Origin: a virus
Length of the DNA stretch: 64,000 nt
Direction: 5' to 3' (one strand)
Virus record (IMG/VR): IMGVR_UViG_3300028920_000002
Coordinates: 122,724 to 186,723 of that record
Below the pieces are notes generated by a model that was given only the letters and a program-made list of their open reading frames with translations, had not been told where the DNA came from and searched no databases. This document shows, piece by piece, positions 3,637 through 59,163 of the stretch. The position numbers were made by a program, and so were the translations under genes. Every line of letters starts with the position of its first letter. The first letter of the stretch is position 1.

Positions 3637-3665
3637 TTCAAAAACGGCAATCGTGCTGGTAGACT
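3637..3665 (+). promoter_or_regulatory. Sigma70-type promoter, leaderless geometry
   Basis: TTCAAA-N17-TAGACT with extended TG; 6 nt to the GTG at 3672. Confidence 0.6.
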
Positions 3666-3671
3666 GAGCTG

Positions 3672-4505
3672 GTGAACTACTCCAGCATGCGGGACGAGTT
3701 TTACAAGATTGCCAAGGAGAAGAAGCCGCCGGTGCCCGGTGAGCGAGATGTACTGCTGGGTACCGGTGGATGGCTTGGCTCTAAGGCCATGAAGGCGGTT
3801 GGCAGAAAGGGCAACGCCGCTCTCGTTGAAGAGCTCATGAACGAGACTCCCACCCCGTCAGACGTTCGCACCAGGCAAATCAACCTCTTCAAAAAGATGG
3901 TCGGTGGTTCCGGTGTGGACGTCTACGGCAAGCAGCTTACTGGTCACGGCCCAGCTGCCATCCAAGCTCTGAAGACTAAGCCGGCCATGCACATCGCCCC
4001 AGAGATGATTGGCATGCCGGGCATCATCGCTCATGAGCTCGGCCATGTTGACGTAGCCAAGGGTCGCATCGGCAAATTCGTCGGGGGCCTTCCCGGTGTG
4101 CTTGGTGGGATGGCTGCAAGAAAGGTGTCTCCCTACACAGCACTAGCTGGCGGACTACTCACTGGAGCCAGCAAGGAAGAGGATGAAGGGAAGCGGCGTA
4201 CCGGCACGGCGATGGCTGCGGCCCCTACTGTGTTGGGCCAAGGTCAACAGTTGGCCGATGAGGCCGGGGCAAGCTTGTACGGTCTGCGTCGTCTACGCCA
4301 AGCAGGGGCTACTCCGGCGGAGATGTCGGCAGCCCGCAAGCACATGACCAAGGCGTTCGGCACCTATGGCACCGCTGCGCTGGTACCTGCGGGTACTGCT
4401 CTTGGGCTGTACGGGATAGGTCGTGGCGCGGCAGGTATGGTGCGCAGGCGAGCACATCTGAATTCCAGAGCTAGAGAAGAAGCGCCCCCGGACGCTTCTT
4501 CCTAG
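3672..4505 (+). CDS. HEXXH zinc-metallopeptidase-like protein with Gly/Ala-rich hydrophobic segments
   Basis: IIAHELGH (aa 118-125) plus a distal DEAGAS glutamate (gluzincin pattern); N-terminal RDEFYKIA motif. Confidence 0.65.
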   Translation: MNYSSMRDEFYKIAKEKKPPVPGERDVLLGTGGWLGSKAMKAVGRKGNAALVEELMNETPTPSDVRTRQINLFKKMVGGSGVDVYGKQLTGHGPAAIQALKTKPAMHIAPEMIGMPGIIAHELGHVDVAKGRIGKFVGGLPGVLGGMAARKVSPYTALAGGLLTGASKEEDEGKRRTGTAMAAAPTVLGQGQQLADEAGASLYGLRRLRQAGATPAEMSAARKHMTKAFGTYGTAALVPAGTALGLYGIGRGAAGMVRRRAHLNSRAREEAPPDASS

Positions 4506-20347: not shown

Positions 20348-20355
20348 GGTATAAC
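20348..20355 (+). promoter_or_regulatory. Probable tmRNA promoter (-10 TATAAC within GGTATAA)
   Basis: About 30 nt upstream of the mature 5' end; leader hairpin GAGTGA/TCACTC. Confidence 0.55.
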
Positions 20356-20385: not shown

Positions 20386-20752
20386 GGGCCTGAACTGGTT
20401 TCGACGTGGAGGAATCAAAGTAGTTGCGTGCAGGCGGTGCTCGACCCGCCTTGACCAATCGAGCAACGGCAGTTGCCAACGACAACGCCACCCCCGCTCT
20501 CGCAGTCGACAAGGCTGCGTGAGCCGTTCGCCTGGGTAGGAGCCCAAGTACCCCAGGGGACGTCATCAGAACATGGGTGGACAGCGGGAAAGACTGCTGA
20601 CTCTCAGGAAAGACTGAGTGGTGGAGGTGCCTACCAACCCCCGAGGCGCCAATCGGTTGCTGGATGAACCAAAACCAATCGCCAGCTACGCACGTGAACG
20701 AGACTACTGAGTGAACTTCGCGGACCCGGGTTCGATTCCCGGCGGGTCCACC
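20386..20752 (+). ncRNA. ssrA: tmRNA; tag peptide ANDNATPALAVDKAA encoded at 20475-20522
   Basis: 5' GGGCCUG pairs with 3' CGGGUCC-ACC, giving a G3-U70 Ala determinant; ACTGGTTTCGACG after the 5' stem; T-arm CCGGGTTCGATTCCCGG; ANDN resume motif; CCA not fully encoded. Confidence 0.95.
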
Positions 20753-21390
20753 GGGTTCTGTCAGGTGTGGGTAAAGGAGGGGATGTAGCGCTCCCTCCCA
20801 GCAAACCTCGGGAAGTGGTGCACCACTTTCTGCTGTTAGGCTGCCTGACAGAGCACGAGACTTGTCCCCATCAGTCTCGCAGTATTCTGGTGGGGGCACG
20901 ACGGAAGGTAGGAAACACGTCAGTTAGCTGCTGTCGCAAGCCCTACTGAAAGTGAGGTCGCTAGGAGGACATCCTGGAGAAGGCCCTGTAGGCAATTAGA
21001 GCTCAATGGTTCGCCCAGTCCTCGAAAGCCGACCTTCTCCCTGTTGTGTCGTACGGTGTACCTCGGGCCCCATCAACACAGGGTATGGTGTGGGCCCCAA
21101 CTCTATCCCGGGTACTAGATACCCCGGTGGGTAGGTCAGCGAGACGCTCTTGGTAGCTGACCAACAACGGTTCTCTCTTTTGGGAGGCCGACAAGGAGCC
21201 GGGGGTCAGGTGAAGACGGTTAGCCTGACCACCGAACACCATGATGTGACCGCTCCCCAGCAGGGTTTGCACGCTTTCCCCACTGATGTTAGAAGTGTGC
21301 GCCCCCGACGTCCCGCAAGGCGTCGGGGGCACCAGCAGCGGGTTCGATGCGGCCTACCCCCCAAGGCTCACGGGCCCGCTGCCTTTTCTT
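20753..21390 (+). ncRNA. Candidate large structured ncRNA (or array of small RNAs) directly after tmRNA
   Basis: No credible ORF; at least 10 predicted helices of 6-11 bp, plus possible pseudoknots; ends in a hairpin + U-rich tract. Confidence 0.55.
21335..21390 (+). terminator. Terminator-like hairpin closing the tmRNA/ncRNA unit
   Basis: GCAGCGGG (21335-42) / CCCGCTGC (21375-82) followed by CTTTTCTT; loop unusually long. Confidence 0.5.
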
Positions 21391-21412
21391 AGCTCTCTGC
21401 TAGACTGGCGTC

Positions 21413-21793
21413 GTGGCCATCAGCGAAAAAGAGCAGGGCGAGGACAAAGCCCGAGAGGACTTTCACTTCGTTGAGCGTAGGGCAGTCAACAACGCCTACG
21501 CCGCCCTTGTGGGTCGGCAGTACACAGAGTCGCAGCAGGCGTTCACCTTCGAGGAGGCGTTGGACGCCCATATCGAAGCCATCGAGGGGAAGGATGACCC
21601 TCTGCATCCCAACGAGCTCAACCGGGTGAGGCGCATTCGCAACGAGCTCAATGCCGCTGTGGATGCCATCAAGGCGCTGCCTCCCGAAGCGTTCGTGCTC
21701 GAGGCCAGCGAAGAGGACGTCAACACCGAAGAGGTCCTCGAGGAGCGCACCGCCGCCAAGGAAGCGGCGAATGAGCAAGCCTTCGGCTCCTAG
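21413..21793 (+). CDS. Acidic helical hypothetical protein (leaderless geometry)
   Basis: TGCTAGACT (-10 at 21401-21406), 6 nt, then GTG. Confidence 0.65.
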   Translation: MAISEKEQGEDKAREDFHFVERRAVNNAYAALVGRQYTESQQAFTFEEALDAHIEAIEGKDDPLHPNELNRVRRIRNELNAAVDAIKALPPEAFVLEASEEDVNTEEVLEERTAAKEAANEQAFGS

Positions 21794-21810: not shown

Positions 21811-22359
21811 ATGACTACGTCTCTCTACTGGGAGAGTGCTCCTGACCCCGACGGGGACCATGAGGAGACAGAAGAAGAGCGGCGCAAGCGTTTCGACCGC
21901 AACATGGAGAACGCTGTGCACGCGATGCTGGTGTGGGCGGAGGAGGTGAGCAAGTCCAACGCTCAGCTCAGCAGGGCGCTGTCTGGTAAGGACGAGTATG
22001 GCACTCCTGACTACAACCCCGACAATCCGTTGGCCAAGATTGCGGACAAGTTGGGTGATATCGTCAACATGCTAGGTGGCTACGGTGGCACCAGTCCGTT
22101 CCAAGGTATCGAGACGGCCATCAGCGAAATCTCCGAGGCAGCTAACTCGGCCAAGACTGCGATGGACAAGACCTTGGGCAACGCCGCGCTCGATGCCCTA
22201 CGCTCCGAGAATCAACGACTCACGCACTTACTGTTCCAGGTTCTTGGCAAGGACCTAGAGCGTTCGGATGAGCCGTTCATGACCGCCCTTCGCCGAGCGA
22301 TGAGGGAAGCCGAGGAGTCTCCAGCCCAGTCGGAATCTCCTCCTGACCAAACCGATTGA
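21811..22359 (+). CDS. Helical hypothetical protein
   Basis: 182-aa ORF; GGTATAAG ends 9 nt upstream of the ATG. Confidence 0.7.
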   Translation: MTTSLYWESAPDPDGDHEETEEERRKRFDRNMENAVHAMLVWAEEVSKSNAQLSRALSGKDEYGTPDYNPDNPLAKIADKLGDIVNMLGGYGGTSPFQGIETAISEISEAANSAKTAMDKTLGNAALDALRSENQRLTHLLFQVLGKDLERSDEPFMTALRRAMREAEESPAQSESPPDQTD

Positions 22360-22503: not shown

Positions 22504-23619
22504 ATGGCAACTGCAGCAGACATCGGTTGGGGTTCTTACAGAAGCTACGAGGGTCCGTTCTACCGTGGCAAGGTACGTTACCACCTGCCTTCGAGGCCGA
22601 CGGAAGAGGACAAGATTCTTGCCGTCATCACTGCAACGGAAGGCGGTCACTTGGACGCGTACAATGGCTACGACCGTTGCATCCGTACCAGTGGGCTAAT
22701 TCAGTGGTGCGACCGCGCCCCTCAGCACAGTGTGGACGACATGCTCGGCAAGGTCGCCGAGGAGGACCGAAGTCTCATCCTTCCGGTGGACCAGCTGATG
22801 AAGACCACTGGCTACGAGTTCAAGAAGGGTAGCAATGGTAAGTGGAGGGCCCACAAGGGCGGGGTTCCCATCAACACGGCCGAGCTGCAGCGCCGCCTCT
22901 ACTTCCTGAACAGCGATGGCAAGAAGGGTAACTGGGACACCGCCTCGAAGCAGCGGGCCAAGGAATGGGCTGCGGCAACCTCGACGGTCTGGGAGTTCAC
23001 CGAAGCTCAGAAGGTCCAGCGGGCCTACACGGGCAAACGGCTGCTGAGCTTCGCTCTGCCCAAGGCGCGCCGCATCATCAACCAGGCGCCAGGTAATGGC
23101 GTCGGCAGGGCTTTCACGGCTGCCTACCTCAGCTTCGCCGCCAACAACCCCACCTGGGCCTGGCGCGCTCTGGAGGCCGCGCTCAAGGAGTGGAACGGCC
23201 GGCCGCTCTGGAATGAGCAGTGGCTCATCCACGCGTTGAAGAGCCTGACCTTCCATCCGAGCGTGGCCATCTACCCTCATCGGTACAAGGCCATCCGCCC
23301 GGTGCTCGAGCGGCTCTACGGGGTGCAGCTACCGGACTTCCCCAACGAGCTCAAGGCGTGGACGACCAAGCACAACTACAAGGGCTACATCACTACCCTG
23401 CGCCTGCAGGAGGCGCTCATCACCCTCGGCTACGACCTTGGGCCCGCCGGCGCCGACGACCGTTTCGGCAAGATGACCCGTGATGCCCTCCGAGAGTTCG
23501 AGGAAGACGCGGGCATTCCTGGGGCGTATCGGGATGGCTCGCCAGATGAGTTCACGGTACCCTCACTGGAGAAGGCGTTGGAGAAGCGGGGAGCTCAGCT
23601 CCTTTGGGAGAACGAGTGA
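22504..23619 (+). CDS. Endolysin: lysozyme-like catalytic domain + C-terminal peptidoglycan-binding domain
   Basis: ITATEGGHLDAYNGYD..SGLIQW; LQEALITLGYDLGPAGADDRFGKMTRDALREFE matches the PG_binding_1 pattern; TACAAT 5 nt before the ATG. Confidence 0.8.
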   Translation: MATAADIGWGSYRSYEGPFYRGKVRYHLPSRPTEEDKILAVITATEGGHLDAYNGYDRCIRTSGLIQWCDRAPQHSVDDMLGKVAEEDRSLILPVDQLMKTTGYEFKKGSNGKWRAHKGGVPINTAELQRRLYFLNSDGKKGNWDTASKQRAKEWAAATSTVWEFTEAQKVQRAYTGKRLLSFALPKARRIINQAPGNGVGRAFTAAYLSFAANNPTWAWRALEAALKEWNGRPLWNEQWLIHALKSLTFHPSVAIYPHRYKAIRPVLERLYGVQLPDFPNELKAWTTKHNYKGYITTLRLQEALITLGYDLGPAGADDRFGKMTRDALREFEEDAGIPGAYRDGSPDEFTVPSLEKALEKRGAQLLWENE

Positions 23620-24593: not shown

Positions 24594-24626
24594 CTAGCTC
24601 CATGTCCGTGGTGATAGAATCGGCAC

Positions 24627-25289
24627 ATGGCGATTGACTTCCAGGTCGTCTATCCGCAGGAGTCTGTGCAGCTCAACAAGGTTGAGCTGACCAATGGGGC
24701 TGGCATCGACGCCCTCGACATCCGCGGTCAGGACTTCCGCTCTGTCGACGAGGTGCTCATCAACGATTTGCCCTCGCCCGATGTCATCGTGGTGAGCAAG
24801 AGTCAGCTTCTGGCTCAGCTCCCAGACCGTCTTCAGGGGGCACCGGGTCAGGTCAATACGGTGATGGTACTCTCGAAACGCCTGACGGTGAGCGAGCGCA
24901 GCATCATTCGATTCCGTATCAGCGATACCCCGGGGCGGGTTCGCGGTCTGCTCCGTCTCATCCAGCTCTTTCTGAAGACATTGTTCACCACCCCTGGTAG
25001 CGACATCTTCGACCAAGACGCTGGAGGTGGAGCGTTGAGGAAGGTCGGCGAGACGTTTGGGGCTGACGAGGGTGGAAACATCGTGAGCAGCTTTGTGGTT
25101 TCCGTGAATCAGACGGCTCGGCAAATTGTCGCTCGGCAGAGCCGTGACTCGAGCCTGCCGCTCGATGAACGGTTGATGTCCGCCCGTGTCATCCGAGCGA
25201 ACTTCGACAAGAACCAGGGCGCATTGTTCATCGGTGTAGAGCTACTTTCCCAGGCGGGTCAGCAGGCCATCGCCAATATGGAGCTGTAA
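24627..25289 (+). CDS. Baseplate wedge subunit (gp25-like) with Ig-like N-terminal domain
   Basis: LIQLFLKTLFTTPGSDIF..GG motif; directly precedes the baseplate J-like gene; TGATAGAAT 6 nt before the ATG. Confidence 0.7.
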   Translation: MAIDFQVVYPQESVQLNKVELTNGAGIDALDIRGQDFRSVDEVLINDLPSPDVIVVSKSQLLAQLPDRLQGAPGQVNTVMVLSKRLTVSERSIIRFRISDTPGRVRGLLRLIQLFLKTLFTTPGSDIFDQDAGGGALRKVGETFGADEGGNIVSSFVVSVNQTARQIVARQSRDSSLPLDERLMSARVIRANFDKNQGALFIGVELLSQAGQQAIANMEL

Positions 25290-29676: not shown

Positions 29677-29695
29677 CGAGAACTAGGGTAGCAGA

Positions 29696-32600
29696 ATGGC
29701 GCTCAACGCACTCATCAAATTCGTTCAGGGTTCGAGTGTCGGCAACGGCAAGGCGCTCATCATCAGCGACAGCGCCGACGTGAACATCGGCGTCGTCGAC
29801 AACGACCTCGTAGCGAGCTGGCGCATCGAGCTGTTGTGCGGACCTCCCGGTTCCCCCTCCTACACTCGCCTTCCAGGAGACCCGCTGGTACTTGGCCAGC
29901 AGGCCAATAGCGATACGCCGAGCTACAACTTGACCCCGGACGTTGGTTACCCGGGCTGCTACCGCATCCGCGTCACCACCTACCCGGAAGTCGATTATGG
30001 CGGTGTGCCCAGCGTGGACATCCGCAACGTCTGCGTGCTCACCCCGAATCTGTTCTTCGTGCTACCTCCGTACCAGGAGCTTCCCGAGCCTCTGCCGCTG
30101 GTAGGTGCAGGCGCCCAGCCAGACGAACTCAACTTCGACTCACAGCCCTACGGTTGGATTGGTGACGCCAACGCCAGCCGCAAGTTGCTCAATCGCGCGC
30201 TGCTCGAGATGGATAGCTTCCTCTCTGGAGGAGGGAGCATCGACTGGCAAGACAGCGTACTCGAGCGGAGGAGTGCGCCACCGGTGTCCCCACCGACTGG
30301 CGGCCGGTACATCATCATCGCCACTGCTACAGGTGCGTGGTCTGGACACGAGGACAAGATTGTCGAGTGGAATGGTTCCTCTTGGGAGTTCACGGACCCC
30401 GACATTGGTATGACGACCTACGTTGAGGACGTCAAGAAGCAGTACACCTACAACGGCACGGCGTGGGTGGTGACCGGAACTGGGTCTGGACTGGTGGGTC
30501 CCACGACTCCTGGGCAGGATGACCAGCTCTGCTTTGCCAACGCTGGTGTGCAGGATTACACGGCGGGCATCAAGGTGCTCAACGTTGGCAGCGCAGAAGA
30601 TGGTCTGGAGCTGTCTCGTGTGCAGGCACCTAGTGCAGGCACGCTCACGCTGGCTGTAGCAGCAACAGCTTTCATGCTTTTGGGGTCTACGTCGGTCGCA
30701 AGTCTACCTGCGTCGGATGAGGACCAGCTGGCGTACGACTCCGGTTCCGGGGAGGTGGTGTGGTGGAGACATCCGTGGACGGATGTCACCACACCCAGTT
30801 ACGGCACCGCGTACGGATTGGTCTACGCAAATGCCACGCCGGATGACCTGTCCTACTCCAGCACCATCACCGTTCAGAATGGTGGTGGAGTGTTGGCGTG
30901 GACCGGCACCACCAGCTACGCAAGCAAGCTCAACTTCGGTCCGGGCAGCACAATCATCGGTGCGGAGGACTCGAGCAACAACAACACCTGGCTGTTTCGG
31001 TGGGGGACAGTCACATCTGACGTGCTCACCATCGGCGACGACAACTACGCTGCGGGCGTAGAGTACCGTGTTGGCACAGGGGGTGAGCATGTCTTCTACT
31101 ACATTGGCAGCGAGGCGGTGGCCATCGGGTATGGAGTAGGTGGCTACGTCCGCTTCTCCAAGGCCGAAGGCCGCATCTACATGGATGCGCAGACCGATGA
31201 TGTGACCACTAATGAACTAGGCATCTACGGTCAGTCTGCTGGTTCAGGTTCCGTCGGTGATATCGATGGCGGGGACATCGGTATCTACCTCGGGCAGGGA
31301 GTCAACTCTGGCGATGACGGTGCCGTGGTCTTCTACGACCTCTCTACCGAGTTCTTCCGCATCGACAACCTCGGTTCGCCCCGCCTCGTTTTCCCGTTTG
31401 GGGACTTCCACATCTTCATCCCTGGTCCCAACGTAGACTTTGCTGCGTTCGACTCTGGTACAGGCGTTGCCAGCTTTGGCAACACCACTACCGGCAATAC
31501 CGAAGTCGTTGGTTCGGGTCTCGTCAAGCTATCAACCGGCGGCGGCTCACTGGATTACGTCGGTAGTGGACTGCAGTTCACGTATAGCAGCGGAGTCTTC
31601 ATTAGCGCAGCAGCCCACGCCAGCGCCGCAGGTGACTACATCAGGATTCTGGGGCAGAGTGGCGCTAGCGGCTTTGGCGGAGGTGTTGTTGAGCTGGTTG
31701 GTGGTGCTGGTGTAGGGACAGACCAGCCTGCTGGAGGTGTTGGGCTCTACACAGGTACGCGTACTGGTACGGGAAGCTGGAACACCGTCGCTGCGTACAG
31801 CGGGTTCCCCGGGGCGGATACGCTGCTCGGTGAGTTCGGCAACGATACCAACGGCGAGTACCTAGCGCTGGGTTCGGCTGACCAAGCCGAGGATGGACTT
31901 CTGCGTCTTCCCATCGATGGCGCCATCATGGGCCGAGTCGGAGCTGGCAACACGCGCAACATGATGGTGATGACGTCAGCCTCCGCATTGGTGATAGGCG
32001 ACGTCGCCGGGTATTCACACACCGAAATTCGTACGACGGGTGGTGGTATCCGCATCAAGGATTCCAACACGGGTAGCGGCGACCTCACGTATGGTGAGTT
32101 GGCCTCCAACCGCTTCTCCATGTATGGGGATAATGGTGACGGGGTCATCGCCCAGAATGCTCGAACTACGGATGGGGACGGCTATAACATCGCCATCCAG
32201 GCACAGGATGGCGTAGATGCAGGAGCGGTAGACCGTAGAGGCGGTGGCATCTACGCGAGGACCGGGGCCCCCGCCAACGCTGGTGATGGCGGACCGTTCT
32301 GGGTCGAGATTGGCCAGTCAGGTTCGGATGTCGAGGTCTTCAGGCTAGGGCAGGACACCGTGACCAGTATGGGTTCGGTCGCCGATGGTGACACGCTCAC
32401 CTATGATGACACCAACGGTGAGGCGGTTTGGGTCAGGCACCCGTGGACTGACATCACTGTCCCGTACTCATACCAATCGGCCTACGGCTCATTGGTGTTC
32501 GTCAACGCCTCCTCTGACCCAGACGACCTGGACTATGCGAACCTCGTGTGGGCGACCGATGCGGTCATTGGGTTCTACGCTAGTGTCAGCGGAAACGCTC

Positions 32601-46492: not shown

Positions 46493-46501
46493 TGGTAGCC
46501 T
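46493..46501 (+). promoter_or_regulatory. Extended -10, leaderless geometry
   Basis: TGGTAGCCT-gatgca-GTG (46508). Confidence 0.5.
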
Positions 46502-46507
46502 GATGCA

Positions 46508-49500
46508 GTGCCGGACCGCGAATTCGCCCCAGGAATACCGGCAAGTCGCGCGGTGCGCGCTCTGCCGAAGTTCAAGAAGCCTCAAACCTGGGAGATGGGG
46601 CTTCACCGCCATCAGGCTGAGCGCGCCGGCGAACACTTCGACCTGAGGTTAGGAGACCCATCCACCGGACGCGCTCATTCCTGGGCGCTGCGCAAGGGTC
46701 TGCCAGGCCCTGGGGAGCGGCGCCTGGCGGTGCAGCAGCCTACTCATACCCTGGCCTACATGGATTTCAAGGGCCCCATCAGTGAGGGCTATGGCAAGGG
46801 CAACGTAGAGCTCGCACAGCGGGACAAGACCGAGGTACTTCGCTCCGGTGACAACGAGGTCCGGTTCAACGTCTACCGAGGCAAGGAGAACCAGGAGTTC
46901 GCCCTCAGGCGCATGAAGAGCGCTGGTAACTGGTTCATTCAGAACGTCACCCCCAGTCGTAATACAGGTCCAGCCCAGAAGCTGCCTTCGAGCAAGCCGA
47001 AGTACAAACTCGTGGCGCCTGAGAAGCTGGACCCGGACGACCCGAATACGGAGATGCAGGCCAAGCTGGATGGGGCGCACGTGCTCTACCAGTTCAAGGA
47101 GCCGGGCAGTACGCCCAGGGTCTTCAGCTACCGACCTACCGAACGGGCTACCGGAATCATCGACCACACCCAGAAGCTCGAGGGTTTTGGCAAGCTCAGG
47201 ACGCCCAAGGCGCTCGCCAACACCACTCTGCGCGGCGAGCTCTACGCCGTGGATGAGCAAGGCAAGGCTCTACCGGCCGCTCGGGTCGGAGGGATTCTGA
47301 ACGCGGGAGTTTGGAAGAGTCGTGAGAAACAGAAGCAAGAAGGCCGGCTTGTCCCAGCCGTCTTCGACGTTGTCCAGCATCAAGGCAAGAACGTCGAGGA
47401 GCAGCCCTACGCCGAGAAGAAGAGAATACTCTCAGCGGCAACTCGAGCAGCTCCTTGGCTACAACGGCCTCGGACTGCGACCACGCCCGACGAGAAGCGA
47501 AGACTGATTGCCGACATCCAGGAGGGGCGGGAACCCTCTACAGATGAAGGCGTCGTCGTTTGGCACAAGGACAAGCCTGTACCCGCCAAGAGCAAATTCC
47601 AGGAAGAGAGGGATGTGTACGTCCGCCGCATCTTCGCCGAGGCCGGTGAGAAGCGGCGGGGCACGATGGCCGGTGGCTTCGAGTACAGCACGACGCCGAA
47701 GGGCCCCATCGTCGGGCGCATTGGGACTGGTTTGTCTCATGCCATGAAGAAGGACATGCTCGAGAATCCCTCGAAGTATGAGGGGCTGCACGCCCGCGCG
47801 AAAGCGCTCAAGACGCCGAAGGGTTACGCTCCGCGCAACCCAGTGTTCAAGAGCTTCCACCTCGACCAGGACATCCCGGAGGACGCGAAGACTGCCATGA
47901 AGAAGACAGCAGGCGCCGCCACTGAGTTCGTAGCTGGAGTAGACCCGTTCGGTGTCCTCTCTGGGAGGCTCGGTCAGGAGGCAGAGCGGGAGCAGGCGAG
48001 TGCGGCGCGCCATTACCGAGCCAGGGCGCTCGGGGCCGCCGGCGGTATGGTCGGCAGTGGGCTCATGGTGCCCTCTGTGGTGAGCGGCATCGTCCAGGGC
48101 GCGCAGGCTGCGGGCGGCGGTGGGGGCGGCGTACGGCAGCGTCTGGCACGCGGAGCGGCGGGTTTTGCCCAGGGCTTTCAACGACCCGTTCGAGGACTGG
48201 CCGACGCGGCCAGGACCACCAAGTTCCTCGGCCGAGCGGCCAGGACGCCCGGCGGTTCGACGGCTACAGCCGGTGAGCTCGCCGCTATCCAGAGGACTCT
48301 GAAGGAGACGCCGCTGGGGGCTCTGGCGCCCCACGTGGCCGGTGCCAAGGCTACTCCAGAGGCCACTGGCGAGGCGGGCCAGAGGATGCTTCAGGCCCTA
48401 CAGCGCTACAAGGCGACCGGCAAGCTCCATTTGAGCCCGGAGGAGGCGGCGAAATTCCATGGCCAGGCTAAGGGCGAGACCGCCAAGTTCATGGCCGGCT
48501 TGGGCCTCGGTGGCGCGGTAGGGGCTGGAGGGGCAGTCGCGCAGTACGAGAAGGGCAGGTCAGCGGAGAAGGGTATGCAGCAGCGACTCGAGGAAAAGAA
48601 GGCTGCGGTTCGAGGCTACTACAAGGGCCAGCCGGCGAGTCCTAGCACGGTCAAGTTCAAGACTGAGTATCAAGGCATCCCTATACATGTGGACCGACCA
48701 CGCGGCTTCATCATGATGGGTGAGGACGACAAGGGGAACTCTTGGAAGCGTCGCTACAAATACGACTACGGCTTCATCCCCAAGACCCTGGGCGGGGACG
48801 GTGATGGCCTCGACGTATTCATCGGCCCTCAGAAGAAGGCTGAACATGCCTACTGGGCGGTGCAGAAGAAGTCGGATGGCAGCTTCGATGAGTACAAGGT
48901 CTTCTTGGGCTTCGACAGCCGGGATGAGGCGGCAGCGGTCTACCGTAAGCACATCCCGAAGAAGCTCCTCGCTGGTCTGCTCACCATGCGGGTGGAGATG
49001 ATGAAGGCTATGCTTGGTGGCCAGGAGCCTGCAGAACGGATGCAGAAGGCGGCGATGGCGTTCGGTTTCGTCGATGAGCTGCAGAAGCTGGCCAAGATTA
49101 AGACCGAGCTCGAACCCCATCAGAGACGCGTGGTGGAGAGGATGAAGAAACAGCCGGGCTTGGTGGTAGCCCATGGGCTTGGCTCGGGAAAAACACTTAG
49201 CTCCATCGCGGCGCAGGACGCGTTGGGGCTACCATCCACTGTCATCGTTCCTGCATCTCTGAAGGCCAACTACGAGAAGGAGAGGGAGAAGCACATCGTC
49301 GGCACTTCTCCTGAAGCTGCGCTATCCACTCTGCAGCGTATCGCCCGTGCTGGTGAGGCACCGGCATCGCCGATGATGATTATCGACGAGGCCCACCGGG
49401 CGCGCGAAATTGGCACTAAGACCTACAAGGCTCTGAAAAATAACATCGCTGAGAAACGAATGCTGCTGACGGCTAGCCCCTTCTACAACCGCCCGAGTGA

Positions 49501-53874: not shown

Positions 53875-53902
53875 TTCTTCCTGGCATGACTAGAATGGCG
53901 AC

Positions 53903-54700
53903 ATGGCCGCTAGGAAGAACGCCAAGAAGGCAGTAGGCAAGAAGAAGACTTCATCGAAGTCGTCACAACCGGTGTCTTCGGCACCGTCACAACAGGCCGA
54001 GCTCGACGAGCTCAGAGCCATGAAAGAAGAAGCCGCCAAAGAGCTTGCTGAGCTCAAGAAGGCCAGAGAGGACTTCAAGAGAGAGCAGGACTTGGCCCGC
54101 ATCAACCAGGAGATGGCAGCGGGTAACGCCCCTCCCATTCAGCCTCCTCAGCCGCAGGAGACAGAGAAGGAGCGGGAGGAGCGAGAGAGGAAGCAGGAGC
54201 TCGAGGAGCGTGCTCGAGCACGAGAGGAGCGGCGCCTAAGGCGCATGGAAGAGCGTGAGCGGGCAGCAAAGGCTGCAGAGCCATCTCCGGTCTCCAGCTT
54301 GGATGAGGCTCGGGCTAAGAAGGCCAAGCCACCGGCCCCTGAGAAGGAGCCAGTCACCCTGCCGATGGATGAGCTCCACAAGTACAAGCTCGCCACTTTC
54401 AACCGCGCCTACCAGGACGCGGTAGAGAAGCTCAAGGGTCCGCTGGTTCAGAAGTACAACCAGCTGCTCAACGAGGAGCTGCAAGAAGTAGCTAAGAACG
54501 ACCCAGAGTGCATCCAGGCTCGTAGGGACCAGATTGGGTGCATCAACGAGCTCGTGAAATTGCTCGACCCTCAACTACCTGAGGGCTACGCCATCACTCA
54601 GTGCTTGACTGACAAGGGCGTGGTCGTGGCCCAGTACGTTCCTGACCGAGCCGGGAAGCCGCTGCCACTACCAGAGGAGCTGGCTCCGAAAGAGGGGTAA
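53903..54700 (+). CDS. Charged coiled-coil protein with Lys-rich N-terminus
   Basis: TAGAAT 6 nt before the ATG; ERER-rich. Confidence 0.7.
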   Translation: MAARKNAKKAVGKKKTSSKSSQPVSSAPSQQAELDELRAMKEEAAKELAELKKAREDFKREQDLARINQEMAAGNAPPIQPPQPQETEKEREERERKQELEERARAREERRLRRMEERERAAKAAEPSPVSSLDEARAKKAKPPAPEKEPVTLPMDELHKYKLATFNRAYQDAVEKLKGPLVQKYNQLLNEELQEVAKNDPECIQARRDQIGCINELVKLLDPQLPEGYAITQCLTDKGVVVAQYVPDRAGKPLPLPEELAPKEG

Positions 54701-58606: not shown

Positions 58607-58623
58607 AGTGCTAGGATGTACAC

Positions 58624-59163
58624 ATGTCCATCGGAGTACAGGTAGACAAGGCTACTACTTCGCTGCCGCTATTCCTGACGGTGAATAGGGCTGGTGCTGG
58701 TGGCATTACGGGCCTAAGCCCCACAGTGGCTGTGCGGGATGCGTCTACGCTCAACAGCTACCTGGACTTCAATGATGGAACCTTCAAGACCTCGGGGTGG
58801 ACCACCAAGTACGCTGCCCTATCAGAAGTCGAGCGGGGACACTACCAGCGCTCTCTCGACGTCTCTGCTCTACCCGTCAGCGCCTTCGATGTGCTCATGG
58901 CGGAGTACCACGTGGACAACGGCGCTGACGTTGTGGGAGATGCGTCAGACGTTCTCATCGTGGTGGAGTTTGAAGGCGACCTGAAGCTCGTACGTCAGAG
59001 CATCACCAACCGCATGGAGGAGTTCCCCGGCAATCCTGGGCAGCTCGTATTGTGGGACGATGATGGCATCACCCCACTCAAGACGTGGCAGCTCAGGGAT
59101 TCTACCGGTGGTGGCATCGTGGCTACGGTGGGCTCTCCTGCCAAGAGGAGTGCGGCTACGTGA
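58624..59163 (+). CDS. Virion structural protein
   Basis: TGCTAGGAT 6 nt before the ATG; ends a structural cluster. Confidence 0.6.
   Translation: MSIGVQVDKATTSLPLFLTVNRAGAGGITGLSPTVAVRDASTLNSYLDFNDGTFKTSGWTTKYAALSEVERGHYQRSLDVSALPVSAFDVLMAEYHVDNGADVVGDASDVLIVVEFEGDLKLVRQSITNRMEEFPGNPGQLVLWDDDGITPLKTWQLRDSTGGGIVATVGSPAKRSAAT

Follow-up and report, generated by a model that had tools for sequence, protein, structure and literature searches.

The stretch of DNA considered here (the window, 64,000 nucleotides) makes up the final 64 kb of an IMG/VR virus record of 186,723 bp, which has direct terminal repeats, and it encodes on its + strand a one-piece transfer-messenger RNA (tmRNA) followed by a long trailer at 20753-21390, also read on the + strand. 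As judged from comparative sequence analysis, this trailer holds a real, uncatalogued and narrowly distributed structured RNA element of a known general kind, which we find in two phages: the phage of the window and that of L012, a metagenome contig (JGI sample 3300031585) and the sole homologue found. The element is most evident in the 3' core of the trailer (about 21103-21390), which the folds of both sequences resolve into seven predicted local hairpins arranged as a chain (b, c, d, e, g, h and i). A preliminary description of the region had offered a large non-coding RNA or an RNA array; of the two the array, in the form of a hairpin chain, fits better.

The core has changed far less than its surroundings would lead one to expect. 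From about 21040 onward the window can be aligned to L012 with few gaps at 57-67% identity, and blastn finds the part at 21249-21337 with an E of 1e-9. At the 4-fold degenerate sites of three flanking genes the same two genomes are 35-46% identical; neutral sites are thus near saturation, yet the trailer is still well alignable, and it must therefore be constrained. The fold tells a similar story. The core (21100-21392) folds with a z of -4.35, none of 200 shuffles folding as well, and the L012 trailer has a z of -4.6. When the two sequences are folded independently the hairpins come out in the same order, and a structure-aware alignment of these independent folds contains 59 homologous pairs, of which 36 are identical, 11 are changed on one side and 12 on both sides. 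The consensus fold of the two sequences by RNAalifold reaches -97.2 kcal/mol, against -52.7 +/- 5.2 for column shuffles and -68.4 for the reverse complement, and the structure conservation index (the consensus fold energy divided by the mean single-sequence fold energy) is 0.56 as compared with 0.36 +/- 0.03 after shuffling. For the helices that had been specified beforehand, the share of paired cells is 98-99%. Both-side changes were counted at seven pairs in hairpins b, c and d and at seven more in g, h and i, and the count falls to 0-1 when the partners are slid by 1-3 columns. A covariance model built from the window alone (R1) was able to pick out L012, with 41 bits and an E of about 1e-9, and it aligned the hairpins in register. 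Each sequence also has 11 G.U pairs, at which the opposite strand would have A.C mismatches. Since the stems are kept by compensatory substitutions and the loops are conserved in sequence, the core is therefore considered to be under selection as a folded RNA of the + strand. The covariation among homologues that the preliminary description called for is thus clear for the 3' ~290 nt, and does not extend to the 5' 290 nt, which L012 lacks.

These observations bear directly on a more prosaic account, in which the trailer is a variable cargo slot holding the decaying remains of small genes or tRNAs, or a site acting at the DNA level, and the hairpins are incidental. The contents of the slot do differ among phages (mini-ORFs, tRNAs or nothing), a Shine-Dalgarno (SD) sequence with ATG-TAG at 20775-20789 could be the remnant of a gene, and the 5' half is unconserved and modestly structured. 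For the core, this account has to explain an identity well above that of saturated silent sites, at least 14 compensatory pairs against the 0-1 of the slid controls, and a folding asymmetry between the strands together with the G.U pairs, in a sequence where neither ARAGORN nor Rfam detects a tRNA remnant. We consider it improbable. The reading as an incidental spacer is untenable for the core and may hold for 20753-21039 alone.

The features of the locus are collected in Table 1. Among the 3' helices listed in the preliminary description, 21134-40/21156-62, 21204-10/21224-30 and the stem 21335-82 with its following U-tract were all found where they had been placed, and the stem at 21301-30 is present with 12 bp, not 10 bp. 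A kissing pair proposed between GGGTAGG (21129-35) and CCTACCC (21353-59) is not kept in L012. More generally, the pairs supported by comparison all lie within local hairpins, and the long-range pairs of the minimum-free-energy (MFE) folds are not common to both sequences. Hairpin e folds in both sequences with different stem letters, the pair 21205/21229 changing from G-C to C-G; the outer helix around it was read by eye. The last hairpin is an intrinsic terminator by its layout: stem 21335-21382 is followed by CUUUUCUU, and the corresponding stem of L012 covaries and is followed by GUUUUCU. A simple terminator scanner missed it because its loop exceeds 8 nt.

Table 1. Features of the tmRNA trailer and its immediate surroundings (window coordinates).
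Feature	Position	Strand	Evidence or remark
Promoter-like -10 hexamer TATAAC (putative)	20350-20355	+	~30 nt before the tmRNA 5' end; read from sequence
Phage tmRNA, tag ANDNATPALAVDKAA	20386-20752	+	ARAGORN, RF00023
Lineage-specific 5' trailer domain	20753-21039	+	helices read from sequence and folds
Y-shaped element: 11-bp closing stem and two hairpins	20755-20854	+	
Competing hairpin and pseudoknot pairings	20856-20898	+	
Long hairpin	20976-21040	+	
Hinge; alignability to L012 starts here, structure not clearly shared	21040-21102	+	alignment A2, folds of both sequences
Hairpin b: 5-bp core stem, invariant pentaloop CUAGA	21107-21127	+	3 both-side changes vs L012; predicted independently in both
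Hairpin c: GGTCAGC/GCTGACC stem, 15-nt loop with conserved GAGA...TTGGTAGC	21131-21165	+	3 both-side changes
Hairpin d: conserved GGTTCTC.../...GGGAG	21168-21190	+	1 both-side and 2 one-side changes; 100% paired
Hairpin e (21204-21230), outer helix GGAGC/GCTCC (21195-99/21252-56) and A/C-rich single strand	21195-21256	+	
Hairpin g: stem of 8-9 bp with a nearly invariant loop of 13-16 nt, CCCCACYGATGTTA	21269-21300	+	2 both-side changes; 100% paired
Hairpin h: 12-bp stem, 6-nt loop, directly followed by ACCA (21331-34)	21301-21334	+	common to L012 (414-447)
Hairpin i, intrinsic terminator: ~19-bp imperfect hairpin (21335-82), then CTTTTCTT	21335-21390	+	4 both-side changes; outer 12 bp 100% paired
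-10-like TAGACT, 6-nt spacer, GTG of the 126-residue gene (feature boundary, outside the RNA)	21399-21415	+	

It is worth looking at what has been conserved outside the stems. Unpaired positions are 75% conserved, against 67% of the paired ones, which points to loops having a job of their own, as far as two sequences can tell. The longest invariant run, of 18 nt, lies in the linker between hairpins e and g; the second is CGGGGGCACCAGCA, a block of 14 nt that extends from the 3' strand of hairpin h across the ACCA into the foot of the terminator. These letters matter for a second account, by which the trailer is a cis-acting tail that ends transcription, blocks 3' exonucleases, guides the maturation of the tmRNA precursor and insulates the leaderless promoter of the next gene, with no separate functional RNA. 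The position directly behind the tmRNA and the strong terminator with its covarying stem agree with such a role, as does the related locus L013, which has only small hairpins and a terminator here. But stems would suffice for protection and termination, and the loops CUAGA, GAGA..TTGGTAGC and CCCCACYGATGTTA are, with the ACCA linker, among the most conserved letters of the core; furthermore, seven hairpins over 290 nt far exceed what a terminator needs. On balance we find a purely cis-acting tail rather unlikely, if well worth keeping in mind. Pairing of the loops with the phage tmRNA was set aside, their complementarity to it being no better than that of shuffled loops.

Hairpin h deserves a separate comment. 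In the length of its 12-bp helix and in the NCCA behind it, it matches the geometry of a tRNA acceptor/T-arm minihelix, in both the window and L012. A T-loop motif (UUCRANY) is absent from it; the loops, CCGCAA and UUGACC, are 6 nt long and not conserved. On the sequence as it stands, the tRNA-like minihelix is a lead and not a finding. If taken at its strongest, it would make the trailer a second tRNA-like RNA, either a minihelix that is matured, CCA-repaired or charged, or a decoy for RNase P, the CCA-adding enzyme, EF-Tu or SmpB. We give this extended version little credence; were it true, the tmRNA would be delivered with a partner RNA that retunes the ribosome-rescue or tRNA-processing machinery of the host. 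The phage has no SmpB of its own.

The trailer as a whole is predicted to be non-coding. The preliminary description called it free of open reading frames (ORFs), which is not literally so: mechanical ORFs of up to 109 residues are present, and it is true of them that none has a Pfam or PHROGs family or is conserved in L012. In a six-frame comparison of the window with L012 no frame is both open and conserved; similarity runs across all frames and is interrupted by stops. Nor is the trailer a member of a described RNA family. No Rfam 15 family reaches its gathering score in it (only the tmRNA itself passes), and the same is true of L012, so that the earlier proposal of a new structured RNA holds. 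No riboswitch, T-box or other leader family of Rfam was matched. The best sub-threshold matches, from a permissive search at E up to 10, are to Scr3202 (29.7 bits, gathering score 52), CcsR1 (21.8, against 65) and the permuted tmRNA (tmRNA_permuted, 18.8, against 47). Scr3202 (RF02833) is a Streptomyces small RNA (sRNA) and resembles 21298-21386 in having a GC-rich hairpin followed by a terminator hairpin; L012 has no match to it, and the likeness is that of a generic two-hairpin shape.

Several other identities were tried and set aside. A duplicated or permuted tmRNA is not supported, as the permuted model (RF04321) scores 18.8 bits in the window and 23.1 in L012 against its threshold, and in each case the T-arm of the genuine tmRNA anchors the match; internal similarity between the trailer and the tmRNA was not detected. 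The trailer is not a repeat or mobile element: it occurs once in the 187-kb genome, and the only repeats within it match the tmRNA T-arm over 10 nt and are not preserved in L012. An origin-like DNA site was dismissed as well, for the skew does not switch here and the pairing is specific to one strand.

Folded over its whole length, the + strand of the trailer has a z of -4.9 against dinucleotide shuffles (0 of 20 as good) and the - strand a z of -2.0. The expectation that it would fold better than shuffled controls was thus borne out, and the dense structure described earlier is there, unevenly spread: compared with the core, the 5' half (20753-21040) has a z of -2.1, and 7 of 200 shuffles fold as well. 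The helices reported for the 5' half do exist, namely 20755-65/20844-54 (11 bp, one of them G.U), 20776-98, 20811-30, 20856-62/20873-79 and 20976-83/21033-40. A pairing of 20888-97 with 21066-75 that had been given as 10 bp can be formed, and includes a mismatch and a wobble. The H-type pseudoknot proposed at 20856-98 can be drawn, though with a zero-length loop 1, and the MFE fold prefers a competing 12-bp hairpin.

One might be tempted to read all of this as a single ornate RNA of some 640 nt in the class of GOLLD and ROOL, or as a self-cleaving ribozyme that frees the 3' end of the tmRNA. The size, the phage origin, the position beside a tRNA-like gene, the overall folding and the drawable pseudoknot would all be in keeping with it. 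However, searches with the models of GOLLD, ROOL, HEARO and raiA, and with those of the hammerhead, hepatitis delta virus (HDV)-like, twister, pistol and hatchet ribozymes, gave no match at E up to 10, though a weak or novel ribozyme could escape them. Only local pairs are supported by comparison, and half of the sequence is missing from the homologue. By inspection, the Y-shaped element at 20755-20854 does not have the core letters of a hammerhead, and the order of helices behind the tmRNA is unlike the nested double pseudoknot of the HDV-like fold. The trailer and the GOLLD and ROOL RNAs (RF01998, RF03087) have in common that they are large, structured, non-coding phage RNAs beside tRNA-type genes; conserved multi-helix junctions or pseudoknots of their kind are not seen in the trailer, of which there are two sequences only. 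The suggestion of a large ornate RNA is therefore not retained, and we regard this class of explanation as very improbable.

The 5' half has a history of its own. Where the window has it, L012 holds about 35-50 unrelated nucleotides, and a covariance model of the Y-shaped element (R3) found no other copy in the fetched loci or in five whole relatives. The 5' half seems peculiar to the window phage; it may have been inserted there, or L012 may have lost it. On the comparative evidence no function is arguable for it. Inside the first hairpin behind the tmRNA, at 20775-20789, a perfect AAGGAGG is followed after 3 nt by ATG-TAG. This may be a mini-ORF of just a start and a stop codon, or what is left of a small gene resembling the mini-genes of the related locus L021.

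How might the trailer be made? The tmRNA directly before it, which the preliminary description had placed correctly, was identified by both ARAGORN and Rfam (104.4 bits). Its 3' end is encoded as ACC-G (20749-20756), so that the CCA is incomplete; the corresponding end in L012 (101-110) is encoded as ACCA. The window tmRNA should thus need CCA repair, and the L012 tmRNA perhaps not. Given what is established about tRNA 3' processing, the incomplete ACC-G end and the 11-bp stem abutting it suggest that maturation would need an endonuclease cut followed by CCA repair. Upstream, the hexamer TATAAC at 20350-55 is a plausible candidate for the promoter of the tmRNA unit, and a similar GGTATAAG precedes the tmRNA of L013 and the window gene at 21811. 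The only hairpin with a U-tract between the tmRNA and the next gene is the last one of the trailer (21335-21390), as is the case in L012. In both sequences, then, the trailer lies on the same strand as the tRNA-type gene with no terminator in between and a terminator after it. These elements would make a co-transcription unit of about 1 kb in total, which would start at a promoter near 20350, take in the tmRNA and the trailer, and end at its only terminator; the single terminator fits the co-transcription with the tmRNA that had been proposed.

Taken together, the reading we favor is that of a lineage-restricted structured trailer RNA that is co-transcribed with the tmRNA, cut off, and persists as a stable hairpin-chain RNA acting via its loops; we would put the chances of its being right and wrong about level. 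In such a scheme the host nucleases that act on tRNA ends would cut the trailer from the tmRNA, and hairpin h with its ACCA (21301-21334) could be another tRNA-like site, used in processing or in protecting the end, immediately upstream of the terminator. Once released, the RNA would persist in stable form, and its conserved loops may act by binding a protein or another RNA.

A number of points weigh against this proposal. The covariation rests on two sequences, that is, on one homologue, too few for a phylogeny-aware statistic of the R-scape type. The 5' half has no comparative support to add, and its own fold is modestly better than that of shuffled sequence. On the + strand of the genome, chance produces 21 hairpins that have NCCA behind them, or about one in every 9 kb of a strand. 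A scan for the sigma-70 consensus gave no promoter upstream of the tmRNA, the match of the candidate to the consensus being weak. Finally, four more distant relatives have a tmRNA with something else behind it (unrelated sequence in L013, L021 and L033, where the slot is the same, and an ORF in G001, where it is not); since they have a tmRNA and not the trailer RNA, a tmRNA can in general function without it.

The distribution of the element is narrow indeed. Cultured phages contain nothing resembling the region or its neighbours by blastn or tblastn, and relatives were reached through the protein families of the neighbours, including a 126-residue protein encoded just downstream, which gave 20-odd loci from metagenome contigs and IMG/VR records. 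Among these loci the trailer RNA is present in L012 only. The L012 contig begins within the tmRNA, its trailer of 424 nt precedes the gene for a 126-residue protein that is 63% identical to that of the window, and its endolysin-like protein is 80% identical. Searches with three covariance models (R1, R2 and R3) came up empty in all other fetched loci and in the five whole relatives, and five DNA-pattern scans with conserved blocks across viral, metagenome and genome collections returned only the contig of L012 and 16 chance matches that R1 rejected. Among the relatives found, the trailer therefore appears to be confined to the window phage and L012.

What stands in its place in the other phages is quite diverse. 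Behind the tmRNA of L013 lie about 100 nt, in which small hairpins and a terminator are found. In L021 two SD-led mini-ORFs come first, followed by non-coding sequence of about 590 nt (z -3.0) and by a strong terminator. The order in L033 is a mini-ORF of 36 residues with CxxC motifs, about 350 nt of unstructured spacer (z -0.35), a tRNA-Gln and a tRNA-Thr. The tmRNA of G001, a 427-kb relative, is at another place in the genome, with an ORF beginning about 45 nt behind it. L016, the closest relative by its 126-residue protein (77%), offers only 161 nt upstream, which hold a divergent gene and no tmRNA; L034 also has a divergent gene upstream, with no tmRNA on its whole 11-kb contig. With such different contents after the tmRNA among relatives, the slot behind the tmRNA is therefore best described as a variable cargo slot. 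The mini-genes in it are tiny and Cys-rich: that of L033 (2257-2367) encodes a zinc-ribbon-like peptide with the pattern CxxC...CxxC, and those of L021 (2037-2392) are two overlapping ORFs with SD sites. L021 also has three TTGAC motifs at intervals of 11 to 22 nt (2840-2900), just before the terminator that precedes its homologue of the 126-residue gene, and AAGGCTCACGGG is common to this region and to the window at 21363-21374. The TTGAC cluster may be a protein-binding or promoter cluster, or may be due to chance.

The next convincing gene starts with the GTG at 21413, and 660 nt separate it from the tmRNA. It occupies 21413-21793 and encodes 126 residues, and its start codon lies 22 nt beyond the end of the terminator. 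Its product has no Pfam or PHROG match; the family has a conserved motif AFTFEEALDAHI, and its alignment (A3) has an invariant A(F/Y)TFEEALDA(H/Q)I..IEG and an acidic DVNT tail. The gene heads an endolysin-type block, standing directly upstream in every fetched locus where the block is readable, and in the window it is followed by a 182-residue gene and a gene for an endolysin-like, peptidoglycan-binding protein of the lysis type. The endolysin-like protein (22504-23619), with its PG_binding_1 domain, has 412 homologues at E<1e-40, many of them on contigs of 146-203 kb; in P0003/P0013 (Logan SRR26538809) it is 82% identical. These homologues seem to mark a large clade of uncultured phages that has no cultured member in the phage collection searched.

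A folded RNA that ends so close to a gene block invites the idea of a regulatory leader, in which the fold would control read-through of the terminator by attenuation or antitermination. The block does contain a lysis-type protein, and a terminator beside the gene is kept in L012, L013 and L021. Against this stands a -10 hexamer of the gene itself, at leaderless spacing, in five phages: the homologous genes of L013 and L021 have the arrangement of the window, and those of L012 and L033 have an approximate form of it. In L033 a tRNA lies directly before the gene with no terminator, and in L016 and L034 a divergent gene lies upstream instead, the available sequence containing no RNA of this kind; the searches for leader families, as mentioned, returned none. 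With its own -10 box 6 nt before the GTG at 21413, the gene probably does not use the trailer as its leader, and the trailer would therefore be the end of the tmRNA unit. We see a leader function as having a poor chance.

The leaderless arrangement itself recurs in this genome. With crude ORF calls, TAnnnT at a 6-nt spacer shows a genome-wide peak of 8 against a background of about 1.5, a hallmark of leaderless mRNAs. In the window, TAnnnT stands 6 nt before a start codon with no SD at 3660-3674, 21399-21415, 24615-24629, 29684-29698, 46496-46510, 53891-53905 and 58612-58626, in the variants TAGACT, TAGAAT, TAGGGT, TAGCCT and TAGGAT, and other genes have a clear GGAGG. Leaderless mRNAs appear to be widely used by the phage, and so by its host, which narrows the range of possible hosts and matters for gene calling.

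The general kind of RNA to which the trailer may belong is familiar. Species 1 and 2 of the tRNA region of phage T4 (bands C and D) are structured non-coding RNAs, single units of about 120-140 nt released by the tRNA-processing nucleases of the host. Like them, the trailer is a structured non-coding phage RNA in a transcription unit with a tRNA-type gene; unlike them, it is a chain of hairpins of 290-640 nt behind a tmRNA, its processing is deduced from its layout, and no likeness to them in sequence or structure is to be expected. The 3' external transcribed spacers (3'ETS) of tRNA operons offer another parallel, as RNAs that come from the trailer of a stable-RNA precursor and end at the operon terminator. 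Among them 3'ETS-leuZ of E. coli is an sRNA sponge of about 50 nt that binds Hfq and pairs with RyhB and RybB, in contrast with which the trailer loops have no better-than-shuffled complementarity to the phage tmRNA. The minihelix substrates of RNase P, such as 4.5S RNA and the C4 antisense RNA precursor from phages P1/P7, resemble hairpin h of both phages in its 12-bp helix, the length of a stacked acceptor and T stem, and in the ACCA. Hairpin h differs in having no T-loop motif, and such hairpins arise by chance; its cleavage would be a prediction by analogy. By analogy, the trailer appears closest in kind to the stable RNAs of the T4 tRNA operon and to the functional 3'ETS.

The value of the element is limited by its narrow distribution in two sequences, and its locus carries two lessons for the annotation of this clade of uncultured phages with genomes of ~180-200 kb. 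The slot behind the tmRNA is a site of variable cargo made up of RNAs and mini-genes, and many genes are of the leaderless type, so that a missing Shine-Dalgarno sequence does not mean a missing gene. Phage-borne tmRNAs are common, while the RNAs that travel with them have hardly been studied. With its conserved loops and its tRNA-like end, the trailer is a candidate for a phage RNA that may act on the translation or RNA-processing machinery of the host.

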